This document shows positions 24,001 through 30,000 of a stretch of DNA of 64,000 bases, one piece after another (the stretch's first letter is position 1; each line of letters opens with the position of its first letter). The stretch is from Escherichia coli (GTDB lineage Bacteria; Pseudomonadota; Gammaproteobacteria; Enterobacterales; Enterobacteriaceae): the NCBI RefSeq assembly GCF_022846255.1, contig NZ_AP025682.1, one strand, 5' to 3'. Made by a program: the position numbers.

Positions 24001-27000
24001 AATCTATACGGGTTCGGAACTAAATCATGTTGCGGGGCAGAACATATATTGGGCTACCTCGGTGCTGAGAGATGGGGCTGAGTTTTATGATAAATACCCG
24101 CTTGATAAAATTTTATGGAGGCTTAAGCCGGATGTTTATCCGATTGTGGAACTACGCGCGGCGATCTCATCAGTCTTTGATGTCGATGAACAAGAAGCAA
24201 TGATGTTATTGCAGGCTATTATTGGGTTAAAAATGATAAATGTGGATCTATCGTATACCATTCTCGAAACAGGTCTGATAAAAATAATTTCCAATGGTTA
24301 CTGCATAGGCCTGAACGCAAATGGATATTATTAGAAATTCAGTATGGTAATCTCATGACAGCGACGTGCTATCTGACGGGCTTTATCGCGTTTTGGATTT
24401 TGACAGAAATACCGATTTGTTGATTTTATTTGAAATAAAAAAGAAAGGACGAGTAAACCAATTCCATTCTCTCTTTCACAATTTACATATGGTGTGGATT
24501 CTCAACGAATAACCTGTAGGAAATATATCACCCCCTCATATTTGTTGATTGATGAGGAAAATATAACTAATGAAGACAGGAAACGGCGGGGTACGAATTA
24601 TAATATTATTAAAGAACTTGTAGAAGATAGAATGTTCATATTCAATTATGCATTTCATAAAAATCTCATTTATCGACAGAGTATTCTGGGAAAAAACAAA
24701 TCCCACAGCGTACTATCAGGACACTTCTGACTCTTTACTGGAAGTATGGGCAGGATATATATGCTTTACTGCCCGCATACCCGAACTGCGGTGGAGCAGG
24801 CAAGAGCAGAATCCGGCATGAGGTTAAACTCGGGAACGAAAAGAAAAACAGAATGTTACCTAATATACGCTCAGATGTCTATATCCTTAATGAAGGGGAT
24901 ATAGAAAATATCAGAAAACCTCTGGCCAAGTACCATTATAAACTTCATGGAGAAACGATAAAAAAAACGGTGATGCTTCCAATTAGTAGAACATGTATTT
25001 TTCAATGAAGGCCCCGAGAACCTTTTCATGTAGCTCAATTGAGCGTGAAAAGCAGATTGTTTTGCGGGCCAGACGCTTGATGCGGGTTCTCAGCGTCAGA
25101 TTGTTACGCGCAATGCGCTGAGTGAATAGTTTGCCGGTCAGATGCTTTTCCTTAGCGACTTCTCTGGCATAACTTCCCCAGTCGTCGCTCGTTACCATGC
25201 CGATATTAAACGGGGTGAGCAGAGCCAGCAGCTCACGACAGGTTTCATCCGTTCGTGGATCGAACGTATAAGCAAGAACACCACCTGTTTTGGTGTTGTA
25301 GGCATACCAGAGCCAGTGCTGTCGGGCCTTGCTGCCGACAAAGCTCCACTGTTCATCGAGCTCGCAGATGAGCGCGACATCTGCATGAGCGACCGGAGAG
25401 GACGTTATTCTCTTTGGCGCGAGTTTTTTAAAGTGCGGATGACGGTATTTATTCCAATTTTGAGTGTCCTTGCGGTATCGCGGACACCTGCTCCGTTGAA
25501 CGCCATTTCGGTGATTTGCTCTTTGACGCCGGGCTTATGCGTATTTTCATGAACGGAGATCGCCCAATAACCGGTGATCGGGTTCAGATGGATATCTGTA
25601 AAATTGGCCCCGGCTTATATCAGTACACATCTATTGATGATTGCACTCGCTACAGAGTCCTGAGGCTCTACTCTCATCGCACGGCGGCAAACACACTGGA
25701 TTTTATTGATTGTGTTATTGAAGAAATGCCTTTCCCGATACAGCGCTTTCAGACAGACCGGGGAAGAGCATTTTTTGCCGTTAAAGTGCAGGAAAGATTA
25801 AAAGAATACGGCATCAAGTTTCGTCCAAATAAGCCAGCGTCGCCTCATCTTAACGGAAAGGTTGAACGTTCCCAAAAGACAGACAAAGCTGAGTTTTACG
25901 CTACCGTAGATCTTTCTGCTGATGACCTGAAGGAACTGCAGGCAGAATGGCAGCATTACTATAACTGGGAACGTCCTCATAGCGCTCACAACGGTAAAAC
26001 TCCGATGGAACGCTACTTTGAACTTGCTGAGAAAACACCATACTCTGATGCCGTTCATGCAAACTATCAGCCCAATGAAGAGCATATACAGGAACAGAAT
26101 TACAAGCTTGAACTTGGACTGAGAAAATTGAAACGATGCCTATGAATCACACATCTAATTGCTCCTTTTTTCGGTTGACAAAATCCATTTATGAATAAAA
26201 ACATCTCCAGATACAGGTGGTGAAAAAAGATATCCTTGCAAATATTCTATTCCTTTATTTTTCATGGCTTTTTCCTGCTCTATAGTTTCGATACCTTCAG
26301 CAACGACCTTAATATGTAATCGTCTTGCCAACATAGCTATACTATCTACTATTGCTTCGGATATTTTATTTGATTCACACTGTTGGATGAAAGATTTATC
26401 CAGCTTAATAAAATCAACAGAGAAATCCTGTAAATAATGAAATGTAGAATATTCTACTCCAAAATCATCGAGGGCAAAAAGGACATTATGTTTTTGTAAT
26501 TTATCAATTATGGTATGAACTTCATTTGTATCTTGAAGTTTTTTCCTTTCTGATAATTCCAGTATAAGCTTGATTTTTTCCTTACCAAGTTGTTCTAGCA
26601 TTTGAACACATTGCTGCTCAAACTCAGGATACAGAATATTGTCTGAATTAACATTGATACCAATATGAAAATTATCTGGTATCAAATGATTTACATATTT
26701 AAATATGTTTTCAGTCTTTTTCATTAAAAGAGATGTTAAGGGAACAACCAAGTTAGAGGATTCCGCAATAGGAATAAATATTTCTGGAGAAATTATTCCT
26801 ATTTTGGGGTGAAACCATCGTAAAAGTACTTCACATCCGGTAAGACGCCCACTTACAGAACAGAATATGGGCTGAAAGTATGGGGTGAACTCTTGATTTT
26901 CTATCGCTCGGGAAATCAGTTCGGGAGTGATCACAAGGTACTTGTCTATATGATATGAATTCACAATTATAACTCTTCTATATATTTATATGGTTAAACA

Positions 27001-30000
27001 AAACTATAGCATAAATACATTCATTTTAGTTTTATTGCTATAAATACAAGACTGAGAAAAGTAAAAGACGTTATTAATGCAGATATACATAAGAGAATAT
27101 CTTTGATATCATGACGAAAACCTGACCTTACGAATGGCTTATCATTAAGAGCGTGTTAAGTGAATGTTTTTTACGGGGTATGTGAATGCTTTAGTTAACA
27201 TGTTTTCACAAGATCATATTTTCAAAATAAGTTAAATGTATTGATTTGAATCAGTTTAAACAAAACTATAAAGCTACTTATTAAGTTTCCATATTTAAAC
27301 TGATAACTCAATTATTTTTCTATAATCATTATATTTTTTAATATAACAATTAATTGTTGTGCTTTTAAATTTATTACAATCAATGGCTATCAAACATTCT
27401 TAATAACTCTTTTTCTGTATCAATAACTTTCCCATTTCGACAAAAAACGATTCTCATGTGATGTGATAAAATTATATCTAACCAGAACGTAACGTCATTA
27501 CGGATCCCAAGTTTTTTATATACTTGATGTTTTTGTGATGAAACTGTTTTGAGGCTACGAGCTCTGTATTGAGCTACATTAGCGTTCTTATATCCTTTTA
27601 CTAGCAACTCGAACACATCGCATTCAACTTTTGTCAGAGGCGTATATATCCAGATATGAACTATAACATCATGCTCTATTATATTAGTTTTTATGTAACG
27701 GATGTTTTTTTTATTTTCCATTATTAACACTCCTAACAAAATTAGATTTCATTAATCTTTACTGAAAGCAGGCAGGGATTCGCCTCGAAAATCTAATACG
27801 TATCCCTGCCCATTCATCAGAAGTTGATTCGGAAACCAACGCCACCTGTTATTGGTGACTCGGTCTGCTTACCGTTTTCATAACGAGCTTCAGCCCAGAC
27901 GCCAGCATTTGGGGTCAGTTGAGCATTGACACCCAGCCCGTATTTCCCGGTCGTCCCGGAGATATCGTTCCTGAAGTCATAGGTGTCATTGATACGGACT
28001 TTGTTGTTGTCCGAAAATTCATGACTCACCGCCGCCGACAGGTACGGTTTGACCTCTTTTCCTGCAACGTCCAAGGTCATCCCCAGCTTCAGGCCAGCCT
28101 CAGCCTGCAGGGATTTGGTCGCACCGATACTGGCTTTCATGCCGTTATTCAGGCGGATTTCCTTCTTATCCGCCCGAAATGCCGTCGTCCGCACGTATGG
28201 CTGCGCCCATGCATTCTCATTCAGACTGAAGGTTCTGCCCGCTTCGAGGCTACCGCCGAAACCGTTCTGGCTGTAATCGCCCTTCACCGCCGTGCCGTCA
28301 CTCATCCAGGTACGCAGCTCATTATTAAAGCGGTTGTATTTCAGCACACCGTCCACGTAGTAGCCGTCATTATCAAACCAGGTCGCGTACAGACCACCAC
28401 CAGAGCTGTCAACGTTACTCTTTCCTCCACGGGCATGTTTAATGCTGTTGTCGCTGTAAGAGAAGAAAGTACCTACCGCTAAACTGCTGTCACTCAGGTC
28501 AAAGACCATATCGGCGCCGGTTTCGAAACCGTTCTGCGTCAGGGTATAGCCTGAGCTGGCCCCACCGCTGATGCGCTTGTCTGACCCAGTATAACGGCCC
28601 CATACGCCGCCTGGGGCACGGGTATTCTGCATCACATCACCGTGACGGAAACGCAGATTATCCAGCTCGCTGTTGAAAACGTATGCCGGCGCTGTCGCCA
28701 TGCCCAGTACTGCGTCGGCCGATTTTGTTGTGCGACGCACTGGAGACGACGATGTACCTGCATCTGGCTTACCTGTTCCCGGTTTACCAGCATCCGGGTT
28801 ACCTGCATCCGGGTTACCTGCATCCGGGTTGGTCGGTGGAGTAACTGGAGGCGGAGTATCAGCCTTCAGATACCAGTTGGTATTTTCCTTGCTCAGGCCG
28901 TATTCCCAGGTACCGGCATCGACTTTCCCGCCTTTCAGGGTAAACGCGGCATCACCGCCGCCAGTCTGCACCACCTGAAGCGGTGCTCCAGCAGATACTG
29001 GCTCCAGACCGGTGTTTTTGATATCCAGCACAAAGTTACCGCTGGCATTGCCCGCGACATTAAGCATATCTCCGGTATGTGATGCGATATCCGTGTTCAT
29101 CCGGAACGTCCCGCTACCCGACAGGCTCCCGAGCGCCAGCGACACCGCCTGGAAGGCTGGCGTCATGCGTGTGGTTGTTGACGGACGGAAATCAACGGTC
29201 CCGTTATCCAGCGTCAATGCGCCTACAGTGGAGTCACCATCGAGATGCCAGACAGAGGCACCTTTAACCGCCATATCACCGGCACCGGTGCTGTCTCCCG
29301 CCACGTTCCCCGTCAGGATGGTCCCGTTATCCAGCGTCAGGGTGGTGCCTGACTGCGTCGTCACATTAGCCTTAGCCTGAAGTGCATCCATCGTCATGGC
29401 ACCGCCACTCTGAAGGAAAATCCCACCGTCCTGAGACAACAGGCCGCTGAAGCGGGTGTTCCCGCCTTCCTGTGTCAGGATACCGGTCCCCGTCAGGGTA
29501 CCGATGAAAGTCGCAGCACTGTTGTTGAGGTAATACAGGTTGCCTTCGTTTGTGACTACGTCACCGACGAGCGTCCCTTTATCAGTCAGGGTTGTGGTAC
29601 CGTAGAGCACACCGCCGCTGCGAACATCCAGCGTACCGTCACTGCCAACCATCGTATCGCTGGCCTGATGACCGTCAAACACCGTCAGGTATCCGCCGTT
29701 TTCCAGCAGCATATTGACTGCACTGCCGCCAGCGATACTGAAGCTGCCGTTATCGTTGGTACCACTCACTGCTGCACTGGTATTGGTGACGACAGCCCCG
29801 CCACTGTTCTGGGTAACTTTAGAGGCTGAACCACCGGCCTCCACCTGAAGCATGCCGCCGCTTGTAATAGTCGTTTCTGTGACATTTGCGTCGATGTAAA
29901 CATGCTGACGTCCACCACTGTTAACGGTTGTGTCAGTGGCGCTGCCGCCACTGGAGACGTACTGGCGTCCGCCGTTGTTAACAGTAGTTTTTGTGGCATT

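Follow-up and report, generated by a model that had tools for sequence, protein, structure and literature searches.

Two PdeL-like genes downstream of tibA

A 64,000-nucleotide stretch of the Escherichia coli contig NZ_AP025682.1 (assembly GCF_022846255.1), hereafter called the window, carries the tib island, which encodes the autotransporter TibA. Directly 3' of tibA lie two genes whose products are homologous to the two domains of PdeL (YahA), the cyclic di-GMP (c-di-GMP) phosphodiesterase and transcription factor of E. coli K-12. One is a solo LuxR/GerE-type helix-turn-helix (HTH) gene and the other, beyond an A+T-rich spacer, is a solo EAL-domain gene; together they constitute a candidate regulatory tail of the adhesin island. 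A first-pass annotation of this DNA had interpreted the two open reading frames (ORFs), of 119 and 269 aa, as a PdeL-like gene split by an insertion. Both ORFs were found on the minus strand, and the EAL gene does stand alone beside an adhesin locus, the adhesin gene being tibA. The locus contains the following features.

26155..26964, minus strand: EAL gene, encoding a predicted solo c-di-GMP phosphodiesterase of 269 aa with a GTG start; homolog of the PdeL catalytic domain
26965..27379, minus strand: spacer between the HTH and EAL genes, 415 bp, 76.6% A+T, non-coding
27380..27721, minus strand: HTH gene, encoding a solo LuxR/GerE regulator of 113 aa (Pfam GerE); homolog of the PdeL N-terminal domain and of SrgD
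27817..30960, minus strand: tibA, glycosylated autotransporter adhesin/invasin (RefSeq annotation of near-identical loci)
30953..33584, minus strand: tibC (heptosyltransferase; NCBIfam TIGR04414, E 6.6e-185), tibB (LuxR-type) and tibD (CaiF/GrlA-type), from that match and annotations

The order on the minus strand is tibD, tibB, tibC, tibA, HTH gene, spacer and EAL gene, and the HTH gene starts 95 bp past the tibA stop codon. The tib locus has been published as four genes, tibDBCA (PMC8973357). RefSeq gives the HTH and EAL genes generic names only, and no description of the two genes was found in the searchable literature with queries combining tibA with EAL or phosphodiesterase, or with the protein accessions. 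The surroundings are those of the tib island beside yhiN and pitA, not the betT-pdeL-yahB arrangement.

Read mechanically, the HTH ORF spans 27380..27739 and encodes 119 aa from an upstream TTG. The likely start is the ATG at 27721, which is preceded by AGGAG 8 nt upstream, yields 113 aa and agrees with the RefSeq models. The ORF contains a GerE domain (Pfam, E 2e-8) and is 38% identical to residues 12–88 of K-12 PdeL (BLASTP, E 6e-16), and its tail aligns up to about PdeL residue 100. PdeL/YahA ranks first among all PDB sequences, far ahead of the runner-up (9e-13 versus 2.6e-5). The HTH protein keeps the lysine matching PdeL K60, a residue required for DNA binding; this position is invariant.

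The EAL ORF contains a full-length EAL domain (Pfam, E 1.5e-61), begins at PdeL residue 101–102 (NSYH versus NHYH) and is 54% identical to PdeL residues 102–358 (BLASTP, E 8e-106); its best PDB match is again PdeL/YahA (3e-92 versus 1e-52 for the runner-up). All the catalytic and metal-binding residues mapped from PdeL are kept (E45, R49, N104, E136, E139, D166, D167, K187, E223, E226 and Q243), as are the dimer and tetramer interface residues S114, L168 and S298. Loop 6 reads DFGVEYST in the window protein versus DFGTGYAT in PdeL, and takes the form DFG(V/M/I)EYST throughout the clade of split proteins (the split clade). The two ORFs jointly cover PdeL without gap or overlap and in the order of its domains; the collinearity with its N- and C-terminal domains, as first proposed, holds up on alignment.

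The relatives of both proteins are also unfused. In a search of a 5.8-billion-protein collection, the nearest EAL relatives, at 97, 90, 83 and 76% identity, are all solo proteins of 268–271 aa, and fused PdeL appears first at 54%. The split clade and the PdeL clade each have 100% bootstrap support in a neighbour-joining (NJ) tree of EAL domains. The close relatives of the HTH protein are likewise all solo, with lengths of 98–128 aa. In related loci (designated by L numbers), HTH-family genes are located about 95–110 bp 3' of TibC/TibA-like or AIDA-like autotransporter genes; an EAL gene follows the HTH gene in L014–L017, and none follows in L018, L020–L023, L026 and L036.

The two-gene layout, with a spacer of 410–480 bp and intact ORFs, is kept in relatives at 90% and 76% EAL identity. 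Pairwise ratios of nonsynonymous to synonymous substitution (dN/dS) are 0.21–0.29 for the EAL gene (dS up to 0.5) and 0.14–0.34 for the HTH gene (dS up to about 2). Both have persisted as distinct genes over a long period.

The junction between tibA and the HTH gene contains a conserved RNA structure.

27729..27824, minus strand: conserved RNA structure at the tibA–HTH junction, with an inner hairpin at about 27770–27811 and an outer stem formed by 27813–27824 with 27729–27740

This stem-loop has a minimum free energy of -32.9 kcal/mol (z -4.4), and its consensus includes four compensated pairs across five loci, with compensatory changes in the inner hairpin in L018 and L014. The outer stem joins the region of the tibA stop codon to the HTH gene's Shine-Dalgarno sequence, which points to attenuation or translational coupling at the junction. 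As this pairing would occlude the Shine-Dalgarno sequence, synthesis of the HTH protein might require read-through and perhaps also the termination of translating ribosomes at the tibA stop codon.

Spacer, 15-bp repeat and allele state

The measured length and composition of the spacer agree with the roughly 415 bp of AT-rich DNA originally described. It contains stop codons in all three coding-strand frames, and the HTH and EAL ORFs lie in different frames. Of 5426 complete E. coli genomes, 21 contain the spacer, in each case once and only at this locus; within the 64-kb window only the self-match was obtained, and terminal inverted repeats were sought in it without success. Searches by tblastn with PdeL, fused and solo HTH queries gave no sign of a former HTH-coding sequence in the spacer (E above 0.04), whereas the HTH pseudogene of L010, used as a positive control, was recovered at E 4e-16. 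No sequence similarity was found between the spacer and the pdeL promoter region.

The proposal that a domain split had arisen by insertion, for which a check of the spacer against ends of miniature inverted-repeat transposable elements (MITEs) or insertion sequences (ISs) had been suggested, gained no support from these comparisons or from the retention of the layout in diverged relatives. A MITE or IS was ruled out, as there is one locus-specific copy per genome without terminal repeats and the 15-bp repeat described below is internal. A recent gene break at this locus by a recognisable insertion is not supported by the sequences.

The overall identity of the spacer to that of L014 is about 81%, roughly the level of synonymous sites, and is unevenly distributed. 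The proximal part of about 165 bp is 82–90% identical to L014 and the distal part 76–80%. The proximal 145–165 bp are homologous in L010 and L007, where homology resumes at window positions 27130 and 27108, respectively; the distal part is homologous in the HTH-only locus L018, but different in L010 and L007. The spacer is probably the EAL gene's own regulatory region. The following elements lie within it.

26965..27130, minus strand: proximal spacer block, the best conserved part, which travels with the EAL gene (homology and alignment blocks)
26994..27008, no strand assigned: proximal repeat copy, coding strand TATAGTTTTGTTTAA, 30 bp upstream of the EAL start; candidate operator
27256..27270, no strand assigned: distal repeat copy, 110 bp downstream of the HTH stop codon

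The direct repeat TTAAACAAAACTATA is exact over 15 bp, and its copies at 26994–27008 and 27256–27270 are 262 bp apart. It had been reported as a 14-bp repeat bounding the spacer; the exact repetition is borne out, with one additional base, but both copies lie inside the spacer. They are the only matches in the window, even with two mismatches allowed, and when the spacer was shuffled 5000 times with dinucleotides preserved, 0.18% of the shuffles contained a repeat of such length (P about 0.002). The proximal copy is conserved in L004, L014 and L010 and partly in L007. The distal copy is degenerate in L004 and L014, with a 4-bp deletion, and has diverged in L018. The view of the repeat as a conserved operator pair is accordingly only half supported. 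A target-site duplication around a 247-bp insert was also considered and ruled out, because L010 and L007 lack the distal copy yet have the proximal part of that segment.

Near-identical DNA is present in the same 21 of 5426 genomes, always after tibD, tibB, tibC and tibA, and also on Salmonella IncHI1A plasmids. The pair is intact in seven of the complete E. coli genomes and on the Salmonella plasmids. In more distant relatives, the two halves are partly independent of each other: L007 shows discordant divergence from the window (amino-acid identity 56% for HTH and 76% for EAL), and L010 has an HTH pseudogene and a shortened spacer with an intact EAL gene, which has an ATG at the position of the window's GTG start.

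Alleles differ in a homopolymer near the start of the HTH gene and in an IS66 insertion in the EAL gene.

27705..27712, minus strand: A8 homopolymer in HTH codons 4–6, in frame in the window; its length varies among 98%-identical loci

The window, E. coli 06-00048 and the Salmonella plasmid share an in-frame A8 tract. The tract is A7 in H10407, TW14425, TW10590, 504838 and PigCaeca_2, where the frameshift leaves a 9-aa product, and A6 in WS4437A-1, in which the EAL gene is frameshifted too. The EAL gene is truncated by IS66 in 13 genomes; five of these 13 were inspected for the A-tract, and all five have A7. The variation could stem from on/off switching by slipped-strand mispairing, from simple decay or, to some extent, from errors in assembly. 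To judge from these alleles, most tib-positive enterotoxigenic E. coli (ETEC), including the tib reference strain H10407, have lost the module or possibly have it switched off.

Origin and proposed role of the pair

The homology to PdeL, the intact ORFs, purifying selection, the conserved layout, the linkage to an adhesin gene and the lack of mobile-element features together argue that the tib adhesin island ends in a conserved regulatory tail of two genes and that these are not a freshly broken gene, a reading that we consider probable, with some reserve. The tib tail is best read as an undescribed adhesin-linked regulatory module comparable to pefI-srgD and sfaX-sfaY. It adds two conserved genes to the 3' end of the tib locus, which encodes the studied ETEC adhesin/invasin TibA. 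Compared with the published tib locus of ETEC H10407, the island is the same, and tibD, tibB, tibC and tibA lie directly upstream of the pair; the difference is that the locus was described with four genes, and the two downstream genes, both inactivated in H10407, fall outside that description. Because this reference strain carries inactivated copies of both genes, any function they have would have been missed in work on H10407.

Several known systems resemble the pair in part. In PdeL, both domains are homologous to the tib proteins and have the same order, and its catalytic residues, interface residues and DNA-binding lysine are kept in the pair. The A+T-rich spacer with two motif copies recalls the pdeL promoter, which is silenced by H-NS and contains two PdeL boxes through which PdeL autoregulates (bioRxiv 10.1101/2021.10.01.462762). 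PdeL regulates fliFGHIJK, sslE and pdeL (bioRxiv 10.1101/2022.01.19.477023). It is a single polypeptide encoded between betT and yahB, whereas the tib pair comprises two polypeptides, encoded 415 bp apart in different reading frames within the tib island; the A+T-rich region of the tib pair lies between the domains, not upstream of the HTH, and loop 6 differs.

The Salmonella plasmid pSLT provides a parallel for the HTH gene. Its orf7, which we take to be srgD, encodes a 116-aa solo LuxR-type HTH protein and ends the pef adhesin operon; the protein is 40% identical to the tib HTH protein over 57 aa of the HTH core. Like such SrgD-like tail regulators, the tib HTH gene encodes a solo GerE-type protein of about 100–130 aa and is located at the 3' end of an adhesin operon. 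PefI-SrgD differs in that pef is a chaperone-usher operon with linkage to PefI, no EAL gene follows and the similarity is limited to about 57 residues. PefI and SrgD, encoded in the pef fimbrial operon, are negative regulators of flagellar class I expression (PMC3224193).

A parallel for the whole arrangement is sfaX-sfaY, in which a regulator gene and an EAL gene stand at the 3' end of an adhesin operon; the likeness is one of gene arrangement. The regulator genes papX, focX and mrpJ are likewise located at the 3' ends of fimbrial operons; tail genes of this kind mediate cross-talk to motility and c-di-GMP. PapX and MrpJ are adhesin-linked regulators that repress motility. SfaX and PapX differ from the tib HTH protein in being MarR-like, not LuxR-type, and in being linked to fimbrial adhesins. 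The EAL phosphodiesterase gene that closes the sfa operon, sfaY, is also termed pdeY (PMC5635171).

From these comparisons we infer the mode of expression, the targets, the enzymatic activity and the HTH–EAL interplay of the tib pair as follows. During tibA expression, read-through would yield the HTH protein, possibly aided by translational coupling. This protein might, as SrgD and PdeL do, repress genes for flagella or other surface structures, with the result that cells making the adhesin cease to swim. The EAL gene would probably be transcribed from its own A+T-rich upstream region, which is presumed to be silenced by H-NS, and the conserved proximal 15-bp motif is a candidate operator for this gene. 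The EAL enzyme, with its complete set of catalytic residues, is predicted to lower or adjust c-di-GMP. If so, the tib tail would extend the logic by which adhesin expression represses motility (PapX, MrpJ and PefI-SrgD) to glycosylated autotransporters, and would link it to c-di-GMP turnover. As a natural unfused counterpart of PdeL, the pair could also be used to probe the importance of the covalent HTH–EAL linkage for the PdeL switch.

Several observations weigh against this interpretation. A scan of 26100–27900 for promoter and terminator consensus sequences returned 11 sites versus 9.7 expected in shuffles, a yield no better than chance. The operator idea is weakened because the distal repeat copy is not kept in relatives that are 85% identical. 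The consensus of EAL loop 6 is DFG(T/A)GYSS, and the departure from it that is common to the whole split clade might lower activity. An EAL enzyme, which should favour motility, looks contradictory beside a presumed motility repressor, although the same combination occurs in PdeL and in sfaX-sfaY. Moreover, many ETEC can do without the module, since the H10407-type lineage and WS4437A-1 carry inactivated forms of both genes.

As to the origin of the pair, the gap-free coverage of PdeL would fit fission in the linker as well as fusion through loss of the spacer, and the trees, whose deep nodes have low support, favour neither polarity (fission of a PdeL-like ancestor or formation of PdeL by fusion). 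It is rather unlikely, on the present evidence, that adjacent solo HTH and EAL genes were ancestral and that PdeL and other fused proteins arose by deletion of the spacer. A profile search with the HTH domain, covering 1.84 billion representative proteins, is consistent with this polarity: among the best profile matches clustered at 50% identity, about 25 clusters are solo versus about 6 fused to EAL. In the HTH tree, fused and solo forms are interleaved outside the solo clade, and the solo protein P0148 joins PdeL at 69%. Gene fusion is generally commoner than fission in bacteria, and the distribution of PdeL is narrow (Escherichia). This polarity is countered by the EAL tree, in which the split clade, the PdeL clade and other fused forms are related at only 22–48% bootstrap, and by the nature of the HTH tree, an NJ tree on 97 columns with midpoint rooting. 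Nor was an intermediate with a shortened spacer and intact genes seen; the L010 spacer is short, but its HTH gene is a pseudogene.

An ancient fission is unlikely. It would require that about 415–450 bp of foreign DNA entered the linker of a fused PdeL-like gene that closed an autotransporter operon at its 3' end, supplying a stop codon along with a promoter and a new GTG start, and that both halves were then retained as separate genes. The collinear ORFs that cover PdeL without loss or overlap, the rank of PdeL as the top PDB match of both halves, the presence of fused relatives in several 50%-identity clusters and the non-random exact 15-bp repeat are all compatible with such an event. It is disfavored by the lack of a mobile-element signature, second copy or coding relic, and by the repeat copies, which do not flank the spacer and of which the distal one is lineage-specific. 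The tib-type HTH protein falls in a solo-only clade with 98% bootstrap support, many members of which have no EAL neighbour, and the divergence of HTH and EAL is discordant in L007. In addition, each part of the spacer keeps to its neighbouring gene, the distal part to HTH and the proximal part to EAL, a pattern expected of two juxtaposed units.

With respect to function, a stronger version of the regulatory reading is quite improbable: the pair would act as a non-covalent PdeL switch, in which the EAL protein senses c-di-GMP and binds the HTH protein in trans, rendering DNA binding c-di-GMP-dependent, with HTH synthesis coupled to that of TibA and phase-switched by slippage in the A8 tract. 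Its targets would be the 15-bp motif and flagellar or adhesin promoters. If true, this would tie autotransporter adhesin production, motility and c-di-GMP together in a modular and phase-variable way. Least probable of all is that both ORFs are non-functional, decaying remnants at the edge of an IS-riddled pathogenicity island, as might be surmised from the HTH -1 frameshift in the A-tract with IS66 truncation of the EAL gene in H10407 and at least four other genomes, the double frameshift in WS4437A-1, the IS remnant abutting the EAL stop codon in the window and the HTH pseudogene of L010, since in the window neither ORF is shortened and the catalytic and DNA-binding residues are retained, dN/dS remains well under 1 for dS values of up to 0.5 (EAL) and 1.6 (HTH), and the pair is intact in the seven genomes and the Salmonella plasmids noted above.

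Related loci and neighbouring features

Solo HTH genes of the same family are also found at the ends of fimbrial (chaperone-usher) operons, in three of the related loci.

L034, 6001–6342: solo HTH gene after a DsbA-like gene, chaperone-usher fimbrial operon
L037, 2870–3163: solo HTH gene after an MrpH-like tip adhesin gene, chaperone-usher fimbrial operon
L028, 4570–4920: solo HTH gene (pSLT orf7) after pefI

These loci suggest a general class of adhesin-operon tail regulators. The wider pattern would be that small HTH genes of the PdeL-N/SrgD type close many enterobacterial autotransporter and fimbrial operons.

An EAL gene alone follows another autotransporter gene in L011 (1–1254): the 268-aa EAL-only protein P0010, 48% identical to the EAL protein of the window, is encoded 270 bp 3' of the autotransporter gene. 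There is no HTH gene between the two, and PAPS-reductase-like/DUF3440 genes come next. In L014 (6399–6863) and L004 (6649–7113), relatives at 85–90% identity, an extra ORF of 154 aa without a Pfam match lies between the autotransporter and HTH genes; this ORF is absent from the window.

On the far side of the EAL gene, an IS remnant marks the edge of the conserved module.

25516..26145, plus strand: IS remnant with an IS481/IS3-type integrase core (NCBIfam; frameshifted and incomplete in RefSeq), ending about 10 bp from the EAL stop codon

Truncation of the 3' end of the EAL ORF by this element was ruled out, because L004, which has no IS there, ends in the same ...SN*. Beyond the IS remnant, E. 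coli 06-00048 and the Salmonella IncHI1A plasmids carry a cluster resembling a cyclic oligonucleotide-based antiphage signalling system (CBASS), with SAVED, SMODS nucleotidyltransferase and ThiF/E1-like genes.

L002, 1624–6112, and L024, 9922–12339: CBASS-like cluster in relatives' loci, just past the IS remnant beside the EAL gene

At the corresponding place, the window (23400–26145) contains IS debris only, followed by yhiN and pitA.

At the other end of the island, upstream of tibD (window 33585–36145), are two genes for tyrosine-type DNA invertases, at 33942–34604 and 35594–36145, both on the minus strand. The intergenic region between tibD and the invertase genes contains a perfect 19-bp palindrome (33722–33762) and inverted repeats about 195 bp apart (33762–33770 and 33966–33974). 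This region is possibly an invertible switch of the fimS type for tib. The invertase gene upstream of tibD is a pseudogene in H10407.

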